The position numbers and the translations under genes are program-made. From Candidatus Magasanikbacteria bacterium CG1_02_41_34 (lineage in GTDB: Bacteria > Patescibacteriota > Patescibacteriia > Magasanikbacterales > UBA922), in assembly GCA_001871445.1 (NCBI GenBank), contig MNVD01000025.1:8808-72807 (forward strand): 64,000 bases of DNA, read 5' to 3'. Below are positions 981 through 26,252 of this stretch, one piece after another. Below the pieces are notes generated by a model. The model was not told the origin of the DNA. It worked only from the letters and a program-made list of their open reading frames with translations, and did no database searches. Within the stretch, counting starts at the first letter, position 1, and each line of letters starts with the position of its first letter.

Positions 981-1082
981 TCATCAGCCAGCCATATCGT
1001 CGTGAAGAAACAGTACAGAGGAGAGAGACTTCCACGAATGGAAGGAATCTGTTCCGTGCCTTTACAGATGTGACTGACTTGT

Positions 1083-1195
1083 GAGAGAGTAAACGACCGA
1101 AGTGCCCATGAAGGGCGATTCGATCGCCTTTGAAACAATCATGAAAACATCATTGCTTTAAAGGATCGACGAGGAGTGCTGCTCGTCGTCGATCA
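1083..1195. repeat. Bipartite structured repeat, copy 1. Module A is 1083-1143. Module B is the hairpin at 1164-1195.
   Basis: Module A: gagagagtaaacgaccgaagtgcccatgaagggcgattcgatcgcctttgaaacaat. Module B: gatcgacgaggagtgctgctcgtcgtcgatca. Both modules recur at 5224-5404 with about 90% identity. They lie 3' of the minus-strand high-GC gene. Confidence 0.65.
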
Positions 1196-1282
1196 TGCAA
1201 AATTACAAAGAACAATTGAGTGCATTGTGTCAGCTCCTGGCAGAGCACTCAGCGAGGCCAGGAACTTTTTTGCGTGGGTCTA

Positions 1283-2842
1283 TCAGCGGCTGACGCTGCC
1301 GTGCCCGTCGCACGCGGTGCACGAGAGATCGAGCGTGCCGCTGGCCAGGAAGGCCTTAGCGGTGCTCTTGTCCACGCGCACGGTGTTGCCGCAGCCACAC
1401 CGGAAGCACCGCCCGCCGATGTCGGTGAATGTAGTGACCTTTCCGACGATGACCTGCGGCTCGGGCTCCGTGGGGGCTTTCACCACCTCCACGACTTGTG
1501 GAACCTCTTCCACGCGCTCCCGCCAGCGCATGTGGAGGTTCCACCCACCGTACTTCTGAAAGGCCAGAAGTTCGAGGGCCCCACCGGCACAAGCGACCCG
1601 GTAGATAACCTGCGCCTCCGCGTTATCACACCGCTCCCCGAAGGGCCGAGAATGATTCACGCGAGACACGTACCGGCGGTCGTCATAGGCCTGGTACATC
1701 TGGACGCCATTCCGACCGGCGATTCGGCCGTACGTCCACGACGCTGCGTCATACGACGAGACGCTTTTCAGGTCATCCGGCAGCTGGCTATGCGCCAGCA
1801 TGATGGCCTGAAAACGGACGGCTTCGTCGAGCAGACGCTGTTGCTCGAGGATGGCTGCTGCCTGTCGCTCGACCTCCTTTTTCTTGGCGCTCTCAGCCCT
1901 CTCCGAGGAGAGATCAACAAACGTGTGGAGCCTCGCGAGATCGGCGAGAGTGTACAAGAAGCTCTCGGAGAACTGAGCATCTGGTGCCTTCGCACAGAGG
2001 CAATCCTCGTGATCATAAAAAACGATCCCGAGCACCTCCATGCGAGGCTTGAGCGCCTCGAACCCTGCCTCGAATTCCTTCTTTTCGGTATTCTTTGCTT
2101 CCTCTTCGAGCACCTCGGCCTCGGTCCTGTCGACCTCGGCTTCGGTGTACTCGCGAAGATCCCAGATGGACTCTCCATAGTGGAACGTCTCATCTTCGAG
2201 GGTGATCCCCTTGAGCCCGATCGCCATGCGACGCTCGGACATGGACAGGAGACGTGGCTCGAAGACCGGCTTTTGCGTGGCATTCGCCGTACGCTGCCGA
2301 GCAGCCTCTGCTTGCTCCTCCGCCTCACGAGCTTTGCGCGCTTCGATCTCGCGCCAAGCCCCTTCGACGAAGGTCGCATCAAACGTCCCGACTTCTCGCC
2401 CTGTCTCCCTATCGAATTTGGAGGGCACTCGTGTTGCCACGAGCGTCCGATCCTTGTTCGGTCGGGAGATGAGGTAGCACTCTACGTTCTTCGCCCTTCC
2501 GGCGGTGTGGACGTAGAGCACATCCCCGGGCAACAAGGCCCAGAGCGACTGTTGAAGCTCGCCGATCTGCTCCCACGAGCCGGCGAGTGTTTTTTTTACT
2601 CGCTCCCACAGAAGCTTCGGCTGCCCAGCACGTCGCTGAGCGGTCGCCCCTCCCATGGTCGTGCCGTGCGGTCCGTACGGCCGCACGTACACCACCACGG
2701 CACCCTGCGGTGCTGTGGCCGCGACCTCCCGTGCCACCTGAGGCACGGCAGTCTTGGCGAAATCCGCAACGAAAAATTCTCCAATCCCCTGCTCGGGGAC
2801 AAGGAGGGTCTCAACGGTCTTGTTGGTGTTCTGGTTCGCCAT
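1283..2842 (-). CDS. Hypothetical protein, high-GC ORF (about 519 aa). It is coiled-coil and E/R-rich with a C-terminal Cys cluster (CFRCGCG...CTACDGHG).
   Basis: ORF 1283-2890. The best start is the MANQNTNKT ATG at 2842, preceded by GGAGAGGAGG. GC is about 63% with GC3 strongly biased. The overlapping plus-strand ORF 1220-3001 is judged to be an antisense artefact of the high GC. Confidence 0.5.
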   Translation of the reverse strand: MANQNTNKTVETLLVPEQGIGEFFVADFAKTAVPQVAREVAATAPQGAVVVYVRPYGPHGTTMGGATAQRRAGQPKLLWERVKKTLAGSWEQIGELQQSLWALLPGDVLYVHTAGRAKNVECYLISRPNKDRTLVATRVPSKFDRETGREVGTFDATFVEGAWREIEARKAREAEEQAEAARQRTANATQKPVFEPRLLSMSERRMAIGLKGITLEDETFHYGESIWDLREYTEAEVDRTEAEVLEEEAKNTEKKEFEAGFEALKPRMEVLGIVFYDHEDCLCAKAPDAQFSESFLYTLADLARLHTFVDLSSERAESAKKKEVERQAAAILEQQRLLDEAVRFQAIMLAHSQLPDDLKSVSSYDAASWTYGRIAGRNGVQMYQAYDDRRYVSRVNHSRPFGERCDNAEAQVIYRVACAGGALELLAFQKYGGWNLHMRWRERVEEVPQVVEVVKAPTEPEPQVIVGKVTTFTDIGGRCFRCGCGNTVRVDKSTAKAFLASGTLDLSCTACDGHGSVSR

Positions 2843-3138
2843 GATATCCTCCTCTCCCGTACGCGGGAAGGTGATTTCTCTCTCACACATACCCCATGGC
2901 AGGAAGTACAGAGAAAATGTATTTGTATTGCAGTGGTGTGTGAGGTATCCACTACAATAGGAAAATCCCTTTTAAACCTTCAATCTTTATTAAAAATTTG
3001 AAAGGGATGGCGAGAGTGAATTAAATTCAACTCTCGCCAAAAAAAAACGAATGCAAAATTTCAAAGAACAAAGTGGAGTTGTTTCTTTATCCTCCCCTTC
3101 GTACTCCATGACGAAGGAGAGCAGATTTTAGGAGAAGT

Positions 3139-4971
3139 TTAGTTGCCCGGCTTCTCCTCGGGCTTGAGCGCCCCGCCGGCCACCTCGTCGAGCTTGCCGC
3201 CGTTGTTGCGGACGGCGATGCCCGAGTCGAGGTGGAGCTCCTCCCCCTCACCAATCAACGCGACCACCATGGTCTCGTTATGCTTGTTGGTGGAGGCCGA
3301 GAGGCTCCAGGCCGCCGCGGTCCCGGTGGACCGGTGCGAGATGGAGCTGCCGCTGCTGCGACGGCTCATCTGCACCCAGGAGGCGCCGCGCTTCCACGCG
3401 ATCATCCCCTGGCGGTTGCCCTCGTCCCACACCAGGTGCCCGCCCTTGTCCTTCTTTGACACGAGCCGCGCAGGGAGGTGCCAAACGCTCTCGGGGAACG
3501 GGACGTCCTCCGGGTCGGGGAGCTGCATGAGCAACTCGATCCGGTCCCGCAAGCGGTCGTCCACCGAGACGAACATCTGATCCCAGCTCGCACCACCCGG
3601 CTGCACGCGGAAGTAGAACCGTCCGAAACCCTTCTGCGGGTGACGGCCGAAGTTGGCCAGCCACGCGCGGGCGTCGAACGTCCCCTTCTCGCACCGCAGG
3701 GCGGTCTCGAGAGCGGAGAAGTTCACAGAGCTGTAGAGCGTCGCCTGGAGCTTGGTGCCGTTCCACTCCTTGACGGAGCGGATGGTCACCCAGCCGTCAG
3801 GATGCTGCGGGATCGTGGAGATGAGGTAGCCGGGCAGGACCGACCCCGCTCCCACTCGCCGGAAGCCCTCGCCGTTCCACTTGTACGTCTCGAGCTCGAT
3901 GATCTCACCCTTGTGGGTGATGACCAGCTTGCCCTTGATGTACGCGTGGGACTCGTCTGGCGTCTCCGGCAGCACCAGGAGGAGCTGCTCGCGGAAGAGC
4001 GGCCGGTAGTCGTACGTGTCACCGTACGTCTGGACCGCTTCGCGCGCGCACCGGATGAGGAACTCGATGTCCTCCTGCTCCTCGAGCCACTCCGTCGTCG
4101 GCGCCACCTTGGCCTGCGAGGGCTTCAGGTGTCCGTCGACGACGAGCTGCCAGGAGAACTTGGACTCACCGGCGATGTAGTCCGGCGAGCTGGCCGAGTT
4201 GAAACCCGTCCAGATCGTGCGCCCGAGCTGCTCGTACACCGCCGTGAGCGCGGCGTAGTCGCCGGTCTCGTGGAAGGCGTCGATGGCCTTGCGGCTCATC
4301 TCGACTTCATGCTGACGCTGAGCCGTCTCGCGCTTCTCCTGGACTCGGCGGCTGATCTCGTACGAGTCGAACCGCGCCGCCTTGAGCAGCTTCTCCGGCT
4401 TGTCGGCGGCCCAGGCGTCGAGGCGATCGCGGTAGGAATCCCCATCCTCGCCGTCCTCGATCTCGGGCCAGACCAGCTTGTCCGCCTGGAGCTGCGTCTT
4501 GCGCTGCTCCTCGGCGAACTGCTCAGCCGCGCCACTGGTGATGGCGTCCAGGACCTCTCTGGCCTGGCCACAGAACGTCGGGCAGCCCTTGCGGCCACCG
4601 AGATTCGGCAGCCGACTGCGCCAGCTCTCGGCCTGCGACCGCGGCATGGCCTCGATCTGCCGCTCGATGAGGTTGTCGAACGCGGTGCGAGCCCGGTTCG
4701 TCCCCTCCTGAGCGCGGTCGAGAGCCGCGACGAGCCGCTCCTTGCCGATGAGCTCGATGGCCGCCGCGGCCCACTCGAGCGCCGACTTCTCGAACTCGTC
4801 CATCGTGCGGGTCGACGGCGTGATGCCGCGCCCGCTTCCGTAGCTCTCCTCGTCACTGTGGGCGACCACCGCGGGGGTGGCGCCCTGGTTGTTGTCGATC
4901 TCGATGGCCGCCTTGACGGCCTGCTCCGGGGACACGAGTCCCTGCTTCAGGAGCTGCTCCAGGATGCTCAT
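3139..4971 (-). CDS. Hypothetical protein, high-GC ORF (610 aa)
   Basis: Long minus-strand ORF with protein-like composition (MSILEQLLKQGLVSPEQAVKAAIEID...). GC is about 64%. I recognised no domain. The plus-strand ORF 3478-5076 is an antisense artefact. Confidence 0.5.
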   Translation of the reverse strand: MSILEQLLKQGLVSPEQAVKAAIEIDNNQGATPAVVAHSDEESYGSGRGITPSTRTMDEFEKSALEWAAAAIELIGKERLVAALDRAQEGTNRARTAFDNLIERQIEAMPRSQAESWRSRLPNLGGRKGCPTFCGQAREVLDAITSGAAEQFAEEQRKTQLQADKLVWPEIEDGEDGDSYRDRLDAWAADKPEKLLKAARFDSYEISRRVQEKRETAQRQHEVEMSRKAIDAFHETGDYAALTAVYEQLGRTIWTGFNSASSPDYIAGESKFSWQLVVDGHLKPSQAKVAPTTEWLEEQEDIEFLIRCAREAVQTYGDTYDYRPLFREQLLLVLPETPDESHAYIKGKLVITHKGEIIELETYKWNGEGFRRVGAGSVLPGYLISTIPQHPDGWVTIRSVKEWNGTKLQATLYSSVNFSALETALRCEKGTFDARAWLANFGRHPQKGFGRFYFRVQPGGASWDQMFVSVDDRLRDRIELLMQLPDPEDVPFPESVWHLPARLVSKKDKGGHLVWDEGNRQGMIAWKRGASWVQMSRRSSGSSISHRSTGTAAAWSLSASTNKHNETMVVALIGEGEELHLDSGIAVRNNGGKLDEVAGGALKPEEKPGN

Positions 4972-5094
4972 TCCATTTCTCCAGGGCTTTCGCCCACATG
5001 CTCTTTCCCATTTGGAATGACCGAATGGTCTTCAGACGATGGTACGACGGTACCGTGTCTTATCCATCAGGATTGAGCAGATTCTAGGCACATC

Positions 5095-5158
5095 ACTGTG
5101 CCCTTCTTCCAATTTTTTTAACGCAAAAAAACTCCTGAAGGGCACAGTATTATTTTTT
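5095..5158. promoter_or_regulatory. Nested palindrome upstream of the 3139-4971 gene, which also forms a plus-strand terminator-like hairpin
   Basis: A 12-bp perfect inverted repeat, actgtgcccttc (5095-5106) against gaagggcacagt (5137-5148). It encloses an inner T7-aacgc-A7 palindrome and is followed by a T-run at 5151-5158. Confidence 0.4.
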
Positions 5159-5223
5159 ATTATGTAAAGAACATAATATATTCCCAATTCTAAAATCTGA
5201 ATTCATAATTCTTCATTCGAACT

Positions 5224-5404
5224 GAGAGAGTAAGCAACCGAAGTGCCCACGCGGGGCGATTCGGTCGCCTTTGGAAAAATGATTTTATGAAATCATTTCT
5301 CGGAAGGAACATCATATATACACATATTTTGTAATGAACCGTTGCCAAACCACAGAGTGATTTGGGCATCTTGGTCGACGAGGAGTGCTACTCGTCGTCG
5401 ATCA
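5224..5404. repeat. Bipartite structured repeat, copy 2. Module A is 5224-5285. Module B is the hairpin at 5373-5404.
   Basis: Module A: gagagagtaagcaaccgaagtgcccacgcggggcgattcggtcgcctttggaaaaat. Module B: ggtcgacgaggagtgctactcgtcgtcgatca. It lies 3' of the minus-strand high-GC gene 5454-5972. It contains small hairpins (ggcgattcgRtcgcc) and a larger imperfect hairpin. Confidence 0.65.
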
Positions 5405-5453
5405 AGTGCAATTTTGCCACAGTCTTCACCGCTGGGGCTCGGTTATATGTCGG

Positions 5454-5972
5454 CTAGAGAGGGAGGTACTCGTCCACCTCCTCGAAGCGGACCGGGGCGT
5501 GATTCACGCGCTCCGGGAACTTCGAGAGGATGGCCTCATCGTGGACGCGAACACCCACGACGTAATACACCCCGCGCTCTGCGCCGAACAGCTTCACGTG
5601 GTGGCGCCGAGCCACCGGGTTCACCGGCAACCGGGCCTCCTTCTGCGTCACGAACTTCCCCGTAAGCACCTGACCAAGCCATTGCTTGGTAAACTGCTCG
5701 AGGTCGTTCCCCGCGACACCGCGGGCCGCCGACCACACGCCCGCCACGTCCAGCCAATTGCTCCCATCGTGGGAGCAGACCGCCGTGTACCTGGGCAACA
5801 TCCACCACCAGAGGGCGGGGAGGCCGAAGAACAAGGCGGCGAGGCCCACGACCGAGTCGAGGCCGCTCTGGTCCCAGACGCCGTCGGCGGCGACGAGGAT
5901 GTCGTGCCCGAAGGCGGCGGCGATGGCGATGACGACGGCGCTGGCGATGACGACGGCGATGAGCTTCTTCAT
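5454..5972 (-). CDS. Hypothetical membrane-anchored protein, high-GC ORF (172 aa)
   Basis: MKKLIAVVIASAVVIAIAAAFGHD... is a hydrophobic N-terminal anchor with a W-rich region. The RBS is TAGGAGGT. GC is about 64%. Confidence 0.5.
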   Translation of the reverse strand: MKKLIAVVIASAVVIAIAAAFGHDILVAADGVWDQSGLDSVVGLAALFFGLPALWWWMLPRYTAVCSHDGSNWLDVAGVWSAARGVAGNDLEQFTKQWLGQVLTGKFVTQKEARLPVNPVARRHHVKLFGAERGVYYVVGVRVHDEAILSKFPERVNHAPVRFEEVDEYLPL

Positions 5973-6069: not shown

Positions 6070-7363
6070 ACAACTATTTTTTCTAGTCAATTTAAATGAA
6101 CAACTTTCAAAAAAGTTTTTTCTCCAAAACTCTCGGAAAGCTAGGCGCGCAGACCATCTCAACCATCACGAAAAGATGATCTGTCACCATAGCCTTCTGA
6201 AAATTCTGCTGCTGCGAATTTCTTTCATGCACTATCTAACTAAATATATTTTCTCAAGTGCAAATGCGAAGAAGTAACTTCCAAAATGGGATTATTTTAT
6301 ATGTACACCCCGTGCCGTCACACTCCGCACAGTCATTCCAAAACAGTGGTAATGAATGTTTACACGTTGTACACAATGTTCGAATACTCATACACACGTA
6401 TTTACTTGTCTACTTACTACTTGTTACTTAATGAACATTCATCGCAATATATGCAAATGATGTCGCGAGTGTAAGAAAAATAAATTGGATCATACCGTTG
6501 TAAATAGTTTTCTGTATTTTTTTTGTTTGAAAGAACAATCATCAGTCTTGTTTTGCCAAGCAAAACATATTCTTCAATCTTTCTCTGCGTAATACAGAGT
6601 GTTCCCACTTTCATACATCTTGCGATGTATGAAGGAGGAACGCACTCGGTACTACAGTTTCTGATGAGACTGTAGTCTGATCGAGAAGGAGTGCCTTACC
6701 AAATTTCTTTAGCAATCACTATCAACTCCCATCAGCATTCTCCGTAGCCAAAGCGTTGGAGAAGAAAACCAGATGTGTATCTCACATCGCCGGAAAGAAT
6801 CTCTCTCCATAAGTCACGTGGCGTGAGCTTTACGGGACCTTTCCTTTTCTCGGGCGATGCGGGATCAGACACTTGTAAAGATTTGTATGCGTCAGTAGCA
6901 GACTACAAACTTCCGCATCCTTGTTCGTCTCACAACAAGCGAGAGACGAACTCAGACGTTTTGGAAGGAACCTTGCTCCGACAGATATGGATGGCAGTAT
7001 GTGGTCGAACGATGAATCGGTGGTGTACTCTAGAAAGATGTACTGTGCCGTGTCGTTCTTTGTCCGCCTTGGGCGGATTATGACCTCTCTCCGTGTCATC
7101 CATGTCTGTAGAAACAAAAACACTCTCTTGGTGGAGAGAGTATTGAAAATTTTTAATTTCCTTGGGCTCTCTCCTTCCCTTGGATATCCGTATTTACATT
7201 ATAAGGTGGGGGTCAATCTCGCTTCCCCTTTTCTCATGTTGACGGAATACTATATCACGCAATGCGATATTTGTCAATACTGAGTGGATAGTTGTTGTGG
7301 ACATATCCATTTTTTTGCTTAATTAAAGCCTTTTTTTGTACAAAATAACCTGTCCAGATATAC

Positions 7364-7392
7364 TTGACAAATAATGCACGGTGTGCTATAAT
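7364..7392 (+). promoter_or_regulatory. Consensus sigma70 promoter (TTGACA, 17 nt, TATAAT)
   Basis: ttgaca at 7364-7369, an exact 17-nt spacer, tataat at 7387-7392. It would drive a leader containing the structured repeat at 7487-7640 and then the TrmB-family gene. Confidence 0.55.
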
Positions 7393-7773: not shown

Positions 7774-8556
7774 ATGAACCAAACAACCCTCGACACCCTA
7801 AAAAAAGCAGGCATGGATGAAAAAACTGCCGAAATGTACCTTATTTTAGCAGAAAATGGGGAGAGCACCGTGCCTCAGATCCTAGAGCTTACACAGCTTT
7901 CTAGGGCCACCGTGTATGACGTGCTTCCACAGCTCCTCGCAGATGACTTTATTGAATATAGAAAGGATGGCCGAGTGGCCTACTATAGAGCCGTCCACCC
8001 CACAAAGCTCCTCGAGCTTCTGGATCAAAAAAAACGCCAACTCTCACTGCTCGAAGAAGAAATGACAGAGACTGTCCGCCAAGTAGTTGGAAGTTTTCAG
8101 CTGGCAAATAGTAAACCAGGAGTGAGGTTTTTTGAGGGAATTGAAGGCATTATGGAAGTCATAAATGATTCCCTGAGTGCAAAAGGAGACATCCTCACGT
8201 ATCTTGATGTCGAAGCAACTCAAAAGTATATATCAGGGCAAAATAAAGAGTATGTCAATAAACGTGTGGAGCTAGGCATTCACAAAAGAATGATCGCTCC
8301 CAACACACCAGCAACCAGAGAACGATACAGAAATTACAATCCAAATATTGAAGTGCGTCTCATGCCGCCAGATATAAAACCTTTTGAAACGAGTGTACAG
8401 ATGTACAACGACACAATTTCTTTTTCGTCACTCGATGAGGAAAAAATGATTGGAGTTCTTATTGAAGACAAGAAGATAGTCCAGCTACACAAATCTATTT
8501 TTGAATTCGTCTGGAAATCATTGCCAAAACTCACGTATTCTGACTCTGAGACCTAG
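7774..8556 (+). CDS. TrmB-family (sugar-specific-type) HTH transcriptional regulator
   Basis: The N-terminal winged helix (LILAENGESTVPQILELTQLSRATVYDVLPQLLADDFIEY) plus the C-terminal effector domain match TrmB-like regulator architecture. A paralog is at 59581-60306. Confidence 0.65.
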   Translation: MNQTTLDTLKKAGMDEKTAEMYLILAENGESTVPQILELTQLSRATVYDVLPQLLADDFIEYRKDGRVAYYRAVHPTKLLELLDQKKRQLSLLEEEMTETVRQVVGSFQLANSKPGVRFFEGIEGIMEVINDSLSAKGDILTYLDVEATQKYISGQNKEYVNKRVELGIHKRMIAPNTPATRERYRNYNPNIEVRLMPPDIKPFETSVQMYNDTISFSSLDEEKMIGVLIEDKKIVQLHKSIFEFVWKSLPKLTYSDSET

Positions 8557-16907: not shown

Positions 16908-19900
16908 CTACTCTTGTTCTCGAAACCCAGTTCCCGCAGGAATGAGTCGTCCGATGATCACGTTTTCCTTGAGACCTTCGAGTGGATCCATCTTGCCAGT
17001 AATTGCGGCATTGATCAGGACTTTGCTCGTTTCTTGGAAAGATGCGGCAGAGAGGAAACTTTGTGTAGACAAAGAAATCTTTGACACACCGAGGAACAAT
17101 TCTCGTCCGGCTGCTTCTTTTCCTTTATTTTTCTTTGCCAATTCATTGGCACCGTGGAATTGCGCTTTTTCAACTGTTTCTCCAGGGAGAAGATCTGTAT
17201 CACCAGAATCTTCGACATACATACGGGAGAACATCTGTCGAACAATCAATTCTACATGTTTGTCATTAAGACGTTGTCCTTGTGATGCGTAGATGCTCTG
17301 AATTTCAGAAAGGATGTATCGCTGTACTGCGTCGCGTCCCTTGAGCTCAAAGAGTTCTTGGAGGTCAACACTTCCTTCGGTGAGTTGATCACCTTTTTCT
17401 ACGACATCGCCATTTTTTGCCCACAGTTTAAAGCCGATCTGAACAATGTATTCTTTTTTATGGCTTCCCTGATATCGGAGGGTCAATGATTTTGTACCAA
17501 GTGTAACCACCCCACCGTACTCTGCTTTGACTTCTTCTCCTGTAGTACCACTCACAAAGAGTACTTGATCTTTCTTTACTTTTTGTCCGTCTTCTACTTT
17601 GATATCATCGGCCTTTCGAATTTTCATTTCCACTTCATCCATTCCTTCAAAATGAACCTTGATAATTTTTTGTCCTTTTCGTCCTTCGAATACTTTTCGT
17701 CCAGTTGGACTAGTAATAACTTTTCCATCAGCATCTTCTATTTCAATCGTTCCTGCTACTTCGGAAAGTACTGCTTTTCGTTTTGGCTTGCGTGCTTCAA
17801 AGAGTTCTTCTACACGAGGAAGACCTTGGGTAATATCTCCTCCAGCGACTCCTCCAAGATGGAAGGTACGCATGGTAAGCTGTGTACCAGGTTCACCGAT
17901 AGACTGCGCAGCGATGATACCAACGGCAGTTCCTTTTTTTACAACATTGCTGTTGGAAAGATCGAGACCATAGCACGTCGCACAGACTCCCTTTGGCAAA
18001 TGACATTGGACCACACTGCGGACATGAACTTCTTCCACGCCTTCAGATTCAACCTGTCGAGCAATTTCTGCCGTAATAACCTCTCCTGCTTTTATCACTG
18101 TTTTTCGTCCAGCTTTGACATCAGAGAGGACAAATCGACCACCAACACGCTCTGACAATTTTTCACCAATTTGTTCTGAATTTTCTTTCGTAAATATTTC
18201 TCCAATCTCGTCTCCACAGTCATCCTGTGTGACCACGACATCTTGTGCAACGTCTACCAGACGACGCGTCAAGTATCCTGCATTTGCAGTACGAAGAGCC
18301 GTATCAGAAAGACCTTTTCGCGTACCGTGAGAAGAAATAAAAAATTCAAGTACATCAAATCCTTCTTTGAAGTTTCCTGTGACAGGAAGTTCGATGATGT
18401 CTCCACTCGGAGAAGCAACGAGTCCTTTCATACCAATAACCTGTCCGAGCTGTCCCCAAGATCCACGAGCACCAGAGTCAATCATAGCAAACACTGGACC
18501 TTCTTTATCGAGTGCTTGTTTGTTGAATGAGACAACACGATCTTTAACATCAGTCCAAATTTCGAGCACCTTTGCATGTCGCTCTGATCCAGTCAACAAT
18601 CCTTCTGCATATTGTTCTTCAACAAGTGCAACACTGTCTCCACCTTCTTCGAGAATGGCTTTCTTTTCATCGATACGACCAAAGTCATCCATGCCGAGAG
18701 AATATCCAGACTTTGTGACATATTTGAATCCAACCTCTTTGATTCTATCGAGGATTACCGCTGTTTCTGCTTGCCCATAAAACTCAAGCATCGACGCAAT
18801 GATCTTTGACAAATGTTTTTTGGTAATTGGTTCATTATAATATTCAATCTTTTCTGGATAGATTTCATTGAAGAACACACGTCCAATAGACGTTTCAACA
18901 ATATGATTTGTTCCTTCTGGGAATTTTTCCATGAAGGTTTTGCCAAAACGAATTTTTACTCGTTCTTGCACTTTGATCTCTCTTGTCTTGTAGGCATATT
19001 TTGCCTCAGTAACATTGGAAAAGAACTTCGTGACTTCACCGGTATCACCTTCTGCATATCGTGTCAGATAATATGAACCGAGTGTAATATCTTGTTGTGG
19101 GGTAATGATTGGCTGTCCAGTCGCAGGCTTCAACAGATTTTTTTCTGCCGCCATGATGTGTTCTGCTTCCCACTTTGCTTCTTCTGTCAGTGGGAGATGA
19201 ACTGCCATTTGGTCTCCATCAAAGTCGGCATTGAAGGCTGGGGTCACGAGTGGATGAAGCTGAATAGCTTTTCCTTCGATCAATTTTGGTCGGAATGCCT
19301 GAATACCAAGACGATGCAAGGTAGGAGCACGATTGAGAAAGACACGTGTTTTACTCGTCAATTCTTCGAGAATATCCCATACTTCTGGTGCATTGGATTC
19401 GATGTATCGTGATGCACTTCGGACATTGTGTGCGAGTTCACGCTTGATGATTTCACTCATGACAAATGGTTTGAACAGTTCAAGTGCCATACGTTTTGGC
19501 AAACCACATTCGTGAATTTTCAAATTTGGTCCGACAACGATAACAGAACGACCAGAATAGTCGACACGTTTTCCAAGCAAGTTTTGTCGGAAACGTCCTT
19601 GCTTTCCTTTCAAAATATCGGCAAGGGAACGCAATTTTCGTTTTTGTCCTGTTGAGGCAGTAACGGTCTTTGCAGAACGTGCATTGTTATCGATGAGCGC
19701 GTCGACAGCTTCTTGGAGCATGCGTCGTTCATTGCGACAGATGACTTCTGGCGCATTGAGAGCAAGGAGTCTTCCGAGGCGATTGTTTCGATTGATCACA
19801 CGTCGATACAGATCGTTCAAATCTGATGTTGCAAATCGTCCTCCATCAAGTGCAACCATAGGACGAAGGTCAGGTGGAATGACAGGAATTGTCGTGAGCA

Positions 19901-24891: not shown

Positions 24892-26106
24892 ATGAACCAC
24901 CGCATCGACGCTCCCCGCGAGCACTCGTTCCTCGTCCGCTTCCTCCTGGTTCTCCCGTTCGGCGTGCTCCTGAGCACGCAGATCGGGTGCGCCGACGACG
25001 CGCAGCAGCCCGTCGTGACCGACGACTCCTCCATCACCGAGCGCCTCGATGCGCTCGAGGATCAGGTGGCGGGGCTCCAAGCGCAGGCCGATCGGGTCGA
25101 TCAGCTCGAGACCCGTGTGCACAGCCTCGAGCTGCAGCACCTGGTCGCAGTGGCCGACCAGCAGCGCCTCCAGCTGGAGCTGGACATGGCGAAGAGCCAG
25201 CTCGACCCGTTCGTGAAGACCTTCACTTTCGTCGGTGCCGAGACGCCGGATCCGTACGACACGATGGTCTACGTGAACGGATCGCTCAACCTCGGCATCA
25301 ACGACCTGCTCGTCCGCAACATCGGGGCGAGCAACGTCAACAGCGACCAGGCCACCTTCGGCGAAAGCTGGACACTCGGAGCACAGCACGTAGAGTCCTT
25401 GGCCTTCAAGCAGGACAACTACGAACGGTTCATGTACGGCTTCGACCTGGAGTGGATCCACCAGATCAGCCCGTTCACCCTGTCCAGTTACGACGAGAAC
25501 GGGGAGAGCGTGATCACGTTCACCAGCGGCCACGTCCGCGTGAACAACCTCCGCGCTTACAATCAGCTGCGCGGGGACACGTTGTACGTCGATACCTATG
25601 GCGCCATGCCCGAGCTCAACGTCTGGAATCGTCTCGTGACAGGGAACCTCGAGGCCTTCAGTGTCGAGGTCAAGGAGCTCCTGAACGTGCTCAACGAGGC
25701 CTCGTTTGGCTTCAACGACACGACGGGACCAGCGGTGACGATCACTCGAAATGGCCTCGCTAGCGGCATGCTGATCAGCTCACCAAGCCAGGTCAGTTAT
25801 TCTGAGAAGGCATGGCTCTTTCGCGCCAGCCAGCTCGTCTCGTTCGGCCAGTCCAACGGCGACGGAACCTGGAGCATGATGCTTGAGGACGCCAAGCTCG
25901 TAGCACGCAGAGGCATGTCAGTCTCGAACGAGAATGATAACTGGTTCAACCCAGGTGCCCTGGTGGTGCATGGAGACAGCAAGTTCAAACAGGCCAGCGA
26001 CGGCACGCCGGCAGATGTCACGATCGAGGGCAGCCTCAACGTGACCGGGGCGGCCGACACCGGCTGCTTGCAGACCGAGGTCGATTCCTGCATCGACCTG
26101 CAGTAG
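24892..26106 (+). CDS. Hypothetical secreted lipoprotein, high-GC ORF (404 aa)
   Basis: Signal peptide with a lipobox-like LSTQIGC. N-terminal coiled coil (LDALEDQVAGLQAQADRVDQLETRVHSLELQ). GC is about 64% and GC3 about 95%. The RBS is GAGAGG. Confidence 0.55.
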   Translation: MNHRIDAPREHSFLVRFLLVLPFGVLLSTQIGCADDAQQPVVTDDSSITERLDALEDQVAGLQAQADRVDQLETRVHSLELQHLVAVADQQRLQLELDMAKSQLDPFVKTFTFVGAETPDPYDTMVYVNGSLNLGINDLLVRNIGASNVNSDQATFGESWTLGAQHVESLAFKQDNYERFMYGFDLEWIHQISPFTLSSYDENGESVITFTSGHVRVNNLRAYNQLRGDTLYVDTYGAMPELNVWNRLVTGNLEAFSVEVKELLNVLNEASFGFNDTTGPAVTITRNGLASGMLISSPSQVSYSEKAWLFRASQLVSFGQSNGDGTWSMMLEDAKLVARRGMSVSNENDNWFNPGALVVHGDSKFKQASDGTPADVTIEGSLNVTGAADTGCLQTEVDSCIDLQ

Positions 26107-26135: not shown

Positions 26136-26173
26136 GGGCGACGCAGCAGTGATCTTCACTGTTGCGTCGCCCC
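26136..26173 (+). terminator. GC-rich hairpin downstream of the lipoprotein gene
   Basis: gggcgacgcagcag tgatcttca ctgttgcgtcgccc, a 14-bp near-perfect stem. Confidence 0.4.
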
Positions 26174-26217: not shown

Positions 26218-26252
26218 GAAAAAGCACGTTGTATATCAATGTGCTTTTTTAT
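26218..26252 (+). terminator. Rho-independent terminator
   Basis: gcacgttg tatat caatgtgc followed by tttttt. Confidence 0.55.

Follow-up and report, generated by a model that had tools for sequence, protein, structure and literature searches.

Separable stem-loop modules in the spacers of a high-GC gene array from a Magasanikbacteria genome

The high-GC gene array and its repeated block

The DNA analyzed here (the window) is a stretch of 64,000 nucleotides (nt) of contig MNVD01000025.1, positions 8,808 to 72,807, from Candidatus Magasanikbacteria bacterium CG1_02_41_34, a genome bin from Crystal Geyser; window proteins carry the accessions OIO19113.1 and PJC53698.1. The host genome has ~ 40% GC, and positions 1283–5972 hold three minus-strand genes at 58–68% GC, separated by AT-rich spacers of 300–480 nt. 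A structured block, composed of three hairpins (B, M, and A) and a CU-rich tail, recurs after two of these genes, and the same hairpins were found in a related genome recovered from metagenomes (R, represented by two overlapping contigs, L025 and L028). The genes of the array are as follows.

1283–2842, minus strand: g1, high-GC gene, 519 amino acids (aa), no assigned family
3139–4971, minus strand: g2, high-GC gene, 610 aa, no assigned family; it lacks B-M-A, with hairpins G and C in its 3′ spacer
5454–5972, minus strand: g3, high-GC gene, 172 aa, with a hydrophobic N-terminus

A repeat search of the window aligned 1082–1142 with 5223–5283 (61 nt, 85% identical) and 1166–1204 with 5375–5413 (39 nt, 87% identical). 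Degenerate patterns for the 60-nt block and for hairpin B each gave exactly two matches in the 64-kb window, and none in 100 dinucleotide-preserving shuffles. Copy 1 is defined as 1082–1194 and copy 2 as 5223–5403, with the minus strand as the gene strand. Both copies lie 3′ of minus-strand genes (g1 and g3) in an identical order of stop codon, hairpin B, and 60-nt block. The initial annotation had described a ~ 60-nt block and a 32-nt hairpin recurring after two minus-strand genes, and the repeat search, the patterns and the shuffles confirmed this recurrence; the identical order of the parts relative to the gene was likewise borne out. On the gene strand, each copy runs from the stop codon through 49–87 nt to B, then M, then A and the unpaired ACUCUCUCA, with ~ 63 nt more between B and M in copy 2. 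The region is found at 99.7–100% identity to the window in 14 contigs of independent assemblies (JGI, ENA, and Logan), so the repeat junctions are not assembly artefacts. The block is non-coding and real. Its parts are listed below.

1082–1090, minus strand: CU-rich single-stranded tail ACUCUCUCA of copy 1, directly 3′ of hairpin A; homology between the copies stops here
1091–1130, minus strand: hairpin A of copy 1, with 11 bp, a 2x2 internal loop, 4 bp and a 5-nt loop; −22 kcal/mol, z −4.3; four-copy consensus fold
1127–1164, minus strand: AT-rich hairpin M of copy 1; the base of A and the outer pairs of M compete
1164–1194, minus strand: hairpin B of copy 1, with 9 bp, a C.C mismatch and 3 bp; from repeat search, pattern, and fold
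1195–1215, minus strand: 21-mer TTGTTCTTTGTAATTTTGCAT, immediately 5′ of B and 95% identical to 3051–3071
5223–5231, minus strand: CU-rich tail ACUCUCUCA of copy 2
5232–5271, minus strand: hairpin A of copy 2; −23.4 kcal/mol, z −4.0
5268–5307, minus strand: hairpin M of copy 2, from the fold
5326–5339, minus strand: orphan GTTCATTACAAAAT of copy 2, within the 63-nt insert between B and M; a 15-nt exact match lies upstream of an R gene
5373–5403, minus strand: hairpin B of copy 2, with a stem extendable to 5370–5406

The 60-nt block consists of the 40-nt hairpin A and its 9-nt CU-rich tail, and the interval between A and B is itself a third, AT-rich hairpin, M. Each of the three is far more stable than shuffled sequence (z −4 to −6.7), and the whole block folds 4–7 standard deviations better than shuffles on either strand. 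The 32-nt imperfect hairpin of the initial annotation (our B) folds as had been claimed, at −17 to −25 kcal/mol with z −4.6 to −6.4, and hairpin A reaches −22 to −23 kcal/mol, so that both have the stable, GC-rich stem of intrinsic terminators. As first described, the block has structure, follows high-GC genes of the same strand, and connects the two islands.

The consensus fold of the four M+A copies known from the two genomes contains 27 pairs. In M, three pairs are altered on both sides in copy 1 relative to the other copies, with pairing retained. Three substitutions in stem A pair only on the gene-sense strand, the opposite strand giving A.C, and the G-U pairs of M are likewise kept only on the gene-sense strand, with A.C on the other. 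Based on this pairing of substitutions, the transcribed and folded strand is probably the gene strand.

In neither the window nor L025/L028 did any module match Rfam 15, whether by gathering score or with E ≤ 1; the nearest overlap was frnS at L025 1733–1836 (E 0.45, 27 bits against a 60-bit threshold). ARAGORN detected no tRNA or transfer-messenger RNA (tmRNA) likeness in the module, and the earlier suggestion of an integration-site remnant finds no backing in either program. A terminator scan listed none of the module hairpins.

Spacers and genes compared between two genomes

The further copies that the initial annotation envisaged exist in genome R, whose flanks are 74–82% identical to the window; nhmmer profiles and a covariance model gave no others in the window's remaining 58 kb or in ~ 100 kb of related loci. 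The R copies are the following.

L028 3028–3117: M+A without B
L025 1787–1876: M+A without B
L025 3510–3586: B, then an M-type hairpin; no A

Because R carries them in differing combinations, B, M, and A are three separable modules, and the "bipartite" unit, in which M had been overlooked, is not a single unit. Their recurrence in a related genome also makes them more than a private local duplication. B together with the start of M is identical at 34 of 34 positions between the window and R (L025 3547–3586); by our own arithmetic, 0.8^34 is ~ 5e-4. M+A is 93% identical over 90 nt, as compared with a background of 74–82%, and the neighbouring spacer segments are also conserved, at 87–90%. ACTCTCTC is invariant in all four M+A copies, and homology ends directly after it in every one of them.

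Every copy is situated on the gene strand between a stop codon and either the next promoter-like region or the island end. B starts 11–87 nt after three unrelated stop codons; in R this distance is 11–14 nt, with GC-rich coding sequence before it, leaving no room for a promoter.

The succession of M+A, promoter-like site and ribosome-binding site is 87–93% identical between the window, where it stands before g2, and R, where it precedes an unrelated 740-aa gene; the genes 5′ of this spacer are unrelated as well. The promoter-like site of g2 is kept in R upstream of that unrelated gene, and the g1 leader is likewise present in front of a further unrelated R gene. Within the array, it is the spacers and not the genes that are conserved. 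Where the window has three genes, R has 11 high-GC minus-strand genes between shared flanks. Over both genomes the island genes have 58–72% GC, ~ 25% higher than the spacers, which measure 300–650 nt. GC by codon position in the R genes is ~ 0.65/0.46/0.8, as in true coding sequence of a high-GC source.

The tail of hairpin A belongs to a wider pattern. All seven gene-strand CTCTCTC heptamers of the island spacers have a hairpin 1–3 nt before them, while at random spacer positions a hairpin of −8 kcal/mol or better precedes in only 16% of cases. Three of the seven hairpins are unrelated to A, and two of these three occupy the equivalent island end of both genomes with differing sequences: the window has the small hairpin 1029–1044, and R, at L025 673–700, has a different hairpin with the same CUCUCUC tail. 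GAGAGAG and CTCTCTC are both enriched 18–30 times in the spacers. Another hairpin unrelated to A, with CUCUCUC within 1–3 nt, is found at L025 2897–2963. Further elements of the window spacers are listed here.

946–977: canonical bidirectional terminator with U-tract, read from the sequence, which closes the island 110 nt beyond copy 1; 94% conserved in R
1021–1044, minus strand: small hairpin 1029–1044, unrelated to A, then CUCUCUC at 1021–1027; island end
2965–3008, minus strand: hairpin C, ATCCCTTTC...GAAAGGGAT, after g2; homologous block in R
3009–3038, minus strand: hairpin G, GGCGAGAG...CTCTCGCC, 3′ of the second 21-mer copy (3051–3071); homologous block in R
5159–5187, minus strand: promoter-like site of g2, TTGGGA-17-CATAAT, within GTTCTTTACATAAT and ~ 40 nt past the copy 2 tail

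The remaining spacers, too, have a hairpin without U-tract shortly 3′ of the stop codon. The 21-mer TTGTTCTTTGTAATTTTGCAT also lies 3′ of a g1-like gene in R, and the element that comes next varies, being B-M-A here and hairpin G elsewhere. In copy 1, read from the sequences, the 5′ part of M resembles the B+M type and its 3′ part the M+A type. GTTCATTACAAAAT normally stands 113–235 nt before island start codons, and the single orphan between B and M of copy 2 is probably the remnant of the upstream region of a lost cassette; because of this orphan, B and M+A appear to be the ends of two cassettes joined by deletion. These features suggest that the B-M-A arrangement of the window was made by deletions.

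Outside the two genomes, the scans gave no further copies of the modules. The core of hairpin A had three matches among GTDB representatives, all by chance inside coding sequence of Verrucomicrobia or Planctomycetes, and none in a pattern scan of IMG/VR; five matches in JGI metagenomes comprised two chance matches, one to the same genome and two to R. Viral scans with hairpin B, the g2 leader hairpin and the g1 3′ flank yielded nothing, and the module is absent from the loci of g2 homologues (L018–L023). Contigs with g1 and g3 are 99.7–100% identical to the window and therefore carry no covariation information; L035, a scaffold joined by Ns, was left out. A B-like palindrome, TCGACGACGAGGGACTCTCGTCGATC, lies inside the coding sequence of the 740-aa gene (L028 2436–2463, minus strand; nhmmer E 0.013) and may be due to chance.

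The g2 open reading frame (ORF) is 91.9% identical at the nucleotide level to one located in another Magasanikbacteria context (L018, 10001–11815). This homology begins exactly at the ATG and stops ~ 7 nt before the stop codon, and the flanks are unrelated (49–50%). Comparison of another contig, L036 (118–1947), with L018 gave flanks that are 84–95% identical around an ORF of only 86%. These alignments amount to a near ORF-exact relocation of a high-GC gene. A distant relative of g2 with 56% aa identity is located on a contig of uniformly 66% GC with HK97-type (tailed-phage) capsid, protease, and tail genes, whereas single-protein and profile searches of IMG/VR gave no g2 relatives. Some of the foreign high-GC ORFs have relatives in high-GC phages.

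Relatives retrieved by way of ribE, L029–L031 (GWD2_43_18) and L032, have the succession S15-NYN-PNPase-ribE without the array. Since these two relatives lack it, the array together with the genes for a GNAT-fusion protein, a TrmB-type regulator and a coiled-coil protein forms a ~ 10 kb insertion between pnp and ribE. The neighbours of the array are the GNAT-fusion protein, the TrmB-type regulator (7774–8556), the coiled-coil protein, and ribE. No recombinase, integrase, transposase or RAYT-like gene was found in or beside the array, and no intI or recombinase gene within the ~ 10 kb insertion. Sequence searches of Pfam, PHROGs, NCBIfam and PDB gave no family for the island proteins.

Possible roles of the modules and comparison with known elements

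We tentatively propose, with slightly less than even confidence, that B, M, and A are stem-loops of 3′ untranslated regions (UTRs), or of the junctions between cassettes, that end, protect or insulate cassette transcripts and also serve as recombination points. They would be independent modules of the spacers between individually promoted, horizontally acquired high-GC genes in an array of variable content. The modules would form the 3′ end of the mRNA transcribed from the upstream gene, where their stable hairpins may stop or stall RNA polymerase without a U-tract, block 3′-to-5′ exonucleases, or both. Each cassette transcript would thereby be bounded and insulated from the next promoter, and the invariant single-stranded ACUCUCUC after hairpin A would form the functional 3′ edge, as a candidate site of termination, processing or binding. 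Since several spacers share these modules, homologous recombination could act between them to delete, join, or swap cassettes. It may underlie the differences between the two genomes, and the B-M-A arrangement of the window may itself be one of its products.

Several points weigh against this proposal. No U-tract follows any module hairpin, the tails being ACUCUCUCA after A, CCUUU and M after B, and GCGA after M, though the genome has canonical U-tract terminators (946–977, 26220–26250), so simple intrinsic termination is unlikely; the terminator named in the initial annotation, taken in its canonical sense, fails for the same reason. Neither A nor B contains a pair altered on both sides, and the dataset is small: two genomes, contributing four copies of M+A and three of B. 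The sole substitution in hairpin B fits the plus strand, with G-U on plus and A.C on minus, contrary to the gene strand indicated by A and M, which makes the gene strand no more than probable. The high identity could stem from recent gene conversion instead of selection. In addition, g2 and several R cassettes do without these particular modules, and transcription, strand, and 3′ ends were all deduced from the sequence.

Gene conversion, or local duplication of spacers, is also at the center of a neutral explanation, which we regard as rather unlikely, namely that the blocks are mere leftovers of such events and the hairpins inherited relics of terminators without a function of their own. It would fit the confinement of the copies to the island, the chance or empty results from GTDB representatives and IMG/VR, the 87–90% conservation of adjacent spacer segments and the scarcity of independent substitutions to judge by. 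However, it does not predict that B and M+A exceed the 74–82% background as they do, that M has compensatory changes, that four copies lose homology at the same nucleotide, or that the same CUCUCUC follows unrelated hairpins at three more sites, two of them positionally equivalent between the genomes. A further reading is a signal at the DNA level, in which single-stranded-DNA hairpins and CTCTCTC would be recognized and cleaved by a recombinase or HUH-type enzyme that inserts, excises or swaps the high-GC ORF cassettes, in a manner resembling attC, REP/RAYT, and IS200/IS605, the latter with hairpin ends that the transposase recognizes. HUH enzymes use ends built as a hairpin and, at a set distance from it, a short invariant motif, and all seven CTCTCTC heptamers follow a hairpin. 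Further, the array consists of same-orientation genes of foreign GC content and no known function, numbering three in one genome and 11 in the other at a fixed chromosomal site; the two copies of each genome are direct repeats around 2–4 genes; and the g2 ORF has moved among unrelated contexts with homology from the exact ATG. We nevertheless consider this reading clearly unlikely. Neither the island nor its immediate surroundings hold an integrase, transposase or RAYT-like gene, and the island proteins have no Pfam, PHROG or NCBIfam family; the modules lack attC core sites (RYYYAAC/GTTRRRY), the GTAG tag, terminal inverted repeats and a target-site duplication and are missing from many cassettes. 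Spacers of 300–650 nt with their own promoter-like sites are unlike integron cassettes, the junctions between the genomes fall close to ORF ends without a single fixed sequence, and substitutions of the G-U type suit RNA hairpins more than DNA hairpins.

Two regulatory explanations were also considered. The hairpins and single-stranded tail resemble a small RNA in layout, and a B-M-A or M-A transcript might act in trans by pairing its CU-rich tail ACUCUCUCA with GA-rich leaders or Shine-Dalgarno regions. A candidate target, UGUGAGAGAG, lies 42 nt before the g1 start in a leader whose homolog precedes an unrelated R gene; 10 nt of this leader form an exact complement to CUCUCUCACA, the tail of copy 1, and the spacers have the enrichment in GAGAGAG and CTCTCTC described above. 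A small RNA, which the initial annotation had raised, is nevertheless very improbable: neither strand has a conserved promoter upstream of B or M or a terminator after A, hairpin B in R sits 11–14 nt past a stop codon in GC-rich sequence, the module combinations vary, the GAGAGAG leader amounts to a single homologous case, and Rfam has no match. The least probable of the readings is that the palindromes are double-stranded operators, at which a dimeric regulator such as the adjacent TrmB-type protein controls the downstream promoter. A, B, and M are imperfect palindromes, they lie 40–150 nt upstream of promoter-like sites in three of the four M+A copies, M resembles hairpin C, which itself overlaps a promoter-like region, and a TrmB-family gene (7774–8556) flanks the island. 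Copy 1, however, has no gene downstream of it, and lengths of 31–41 bp with internal mismatches and variable loops are long for operators; changes on two sides that keep complementarity, together with the G-U asymmetry, are expected of folded single strands and not of half-sites.

Among known systems, the modules in their proposed role as transcript boundaries and recombination points most resemble PeSLs, the promoter-early stem-loop motifs with terminator and promoter between genes of unknown function in the hyperplastic regions of T4-type phages (PMC2839356, PMC4122927). PeSLs act as exchange points between otherwise unrelated sequences, and differences among close relatives map to them (PMC2839356, PMC4122927). 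The array shares with them short repeated stem-loop and promoter motifs between variable genes of no known function, and breakpoints between relatives at the motifs. Conservation of the spacers, swapping of ORFs, homology blocks that end at module edges, and GTTC[AT]TT ahead of most start codons make the modules PeSL-like as a functional class by analogy, not by homology. In contrast to PeSLs, they belong to a bacterial chromosome of the candidate phyla radiation (CPR), are larger, come in three separable kinds, and have neither U-tracts nor sequence similarity to PeSLs. Here, terminator and promoter roles are putative.

The repetitive extragenic palindromic sequences (REPs) and bacterial interspersed mosaic elements (BIMEs) of enterobacteria and pseudomonads offer another comparison (PMC3116915, PMC3733652). 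Our modules are similar to these in being imperfect extragenic palindromes in putative 3′ UTRs, mosaics of unit types, with proposed effects on termination or mRNA decay. REPs measure 20–40 nt, have tens to hundreds of copies genome-wide, bear a GTAG or CGTC tag and are associated with a RAYT transposase. The modules, unlike REPs and BIMEs, have two or three copies per genome, all in one array as far as the 64-kb window and the R contigs extend, and no tag, with no RAYT gene in or beside the island; no GTAG was found beside A, B or M. Integron attC arrays similarly combine same-orientation foreign genes of no known function with a palindrome 3′ of the gene, content that varies between strains, and similar repeats. 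However, the attC cores RYYYAAC/GTTRRRY are absent from the ends of B, M, and A on both strands, and with them the R″/R′ core sites of the modules; the genes of the array have their own promoters (predicted) and spacers of 300–650 nt, and its modules are separable and not in every cassette.

Terminator hairpins without a U-tract, known as "I-shaped", have been described in high-GC Actinobacteria. Like these and like intrinsic terminators, the modules are GC-rich hairpins soon after a stop codon, but they come as three hairpins in a row with an invariant CUCUCUC in place of the U-tract, in a host with canonical U-tract terminators. The BOX elements of Streptococcus pneumoniae (boxA-boxB-boxC) have ~ 100 or more dispersed copies and behave like miniature inverted-repeat transposable elements (MITEs). 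BOX elements likewise are modular intergenic repeats whose sub-units occur in varied combinations with stable folds; the copies found here are local to one array and have no sequence relation to BOX. As to MITE features, the ends TGAGAGAGTAA... and ...GTCGATCATGC are not inverted repeats and no duplicated flank was found. Each family failed on at least one defining feature, and the element is therefore placed with intergenic mosaic stem-loop repeats and not assigned to the terminator, attC, REP/BIME, MITE, tRNA-derived att or Rfam families.

Taken as an RNA or DNA element, the module adds modestly to the known intergenic stem-loop repeats, and more weight is carried by its context: a conserved AT-rich scaffold on which foreign high-GC genes appear to be expressed one by one and exchanged within a reduced CPR genome. 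The usual description of CPR lineages is one of small genomes with little regulatory machinery. If the modules are indeed transcript-end or insulator signals and recombination signals, they would illustrate how CPR bacteria acquire and express foreign, partly phage-related genes, and the stem-loop with CUCUCUC, together with GTTC[AT]TT before start codons, would provide a searchable signature for similar arrays. It is distinctly improbable, though conceivable, that the stem-loops and CUCUCUC are boundary signals of a new CPR cassette system, in which a fixed AT-rich scaffold (promoter, leader, ribosome-binding site, and 3′ hairpins) would receive foreign high-GC ORFs swapped almost exactly start-to-stop by a dedicated DNA-hairpin or RNA mechanism. 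The near ORF-exact move of g2 is a more surprising observation than the module itself. No relevant literature on high-GC islands in Magasanikbacteria or CPR was found.

Other features of the island and its surroundings

The motif GTTC[AT]TT, often as GTTCTTTACAxAAT, occurs 15 times on the gene strand in 7.6 kb of island spacers, as compared with 0.30 per kb elsewhere, and stands 113–235 nt before most island start codons. Examples are 5166–5172, 5333–5339, 3063–3069, and 1207–1213 in the window, with others in the L028/L025 spacers and at ~ 9806 in L018. It may be part of a cassette-specific promoter or regulator site. GTTCTTTACA was rejected as a −35 box, as no −10 box follows at 16–18 nt; its 3′ part matches a −10 box only in some spacers. 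In several R spacers, 7-nt periodic repeats of the GTAACAT, GCTACGT, and AACAAT types lie just upstream of GTTC[AT]TT (L028 9409–9439, 8518–8562, 6161–6191, 3610–3640, 7030–7059, and 7752–7781).

A word-index search with g1 retrieved only g1 itself, and a full HMMER search gave remote domain relatives only, which were uninformative about the module. The C-terminal domain of g1 (residues ~ 320–519; window 1283–1900) carries a CxxC...CxxC zinc ribbon and is shared with the C-termini of 1200–1570-aa DEAD/DEAH-box helicases and with many shorter proteins. The 740-aa gene of R has only this C-terminal tail and the 3′ flank in common with g1.

Two contigs of a different lineage with g2 homologues, in which genes of ~ 65% GC alternate with long spacers of ~ 48% GC, contain two unrelated genes directly followed by the same AACCTCTCCCACTGTCA.GA.GTACAGCGG (L021 ~ 556–590, L022 ~ 2030–2065). 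This shared sequence after the stop codon is an analogous 3′ module; like the hairpins without U-tract in the other spacers, it fits a general role at the end of cassettes.

The minus strand at 7115–7277 has a near-consensus promoter (TTGACA-17-TATAGT) and, ~ 110 nt further on, a U-tract terminator (7119–7144). The unit is small-RNA-like, has no Rfam match, and includes GGAAGGAGAGAGCCC, a complement of the CUCUCUCC tails. The divergent promoter at 7364–7392 on the plus strand is perfect (TTGACA-17-TATAAT) and heads the ~ 370-nt leader of the TrmB-type gene. In R, two short stretches on the minus strand of L028 (7347–7364 and 7525–7541) match the 3′ end of tmRNA at E 0.0012 and 0.64, with no call by ARAGORN; they may be attachment-site remnants or a divergent RNA gene.

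Beyond the array, five 21-nt tandem repeats at 567–702 encode the heptad repeat (VKDEVQG) of the coiled-coil protein that flanks the island. There are more solitary high-GC genes without known function, one of which (24892–26106, plus strand) lies upstream of rpoB and has its own GC-rich hairpin without U-tract (26137–26173), followed by the canonical terminator at ~ 26220–26250. In GWD2_43_18 (L029 ~ 18207–19460), a high-GC gene of no known function adjoins the 5S rRNA gene.

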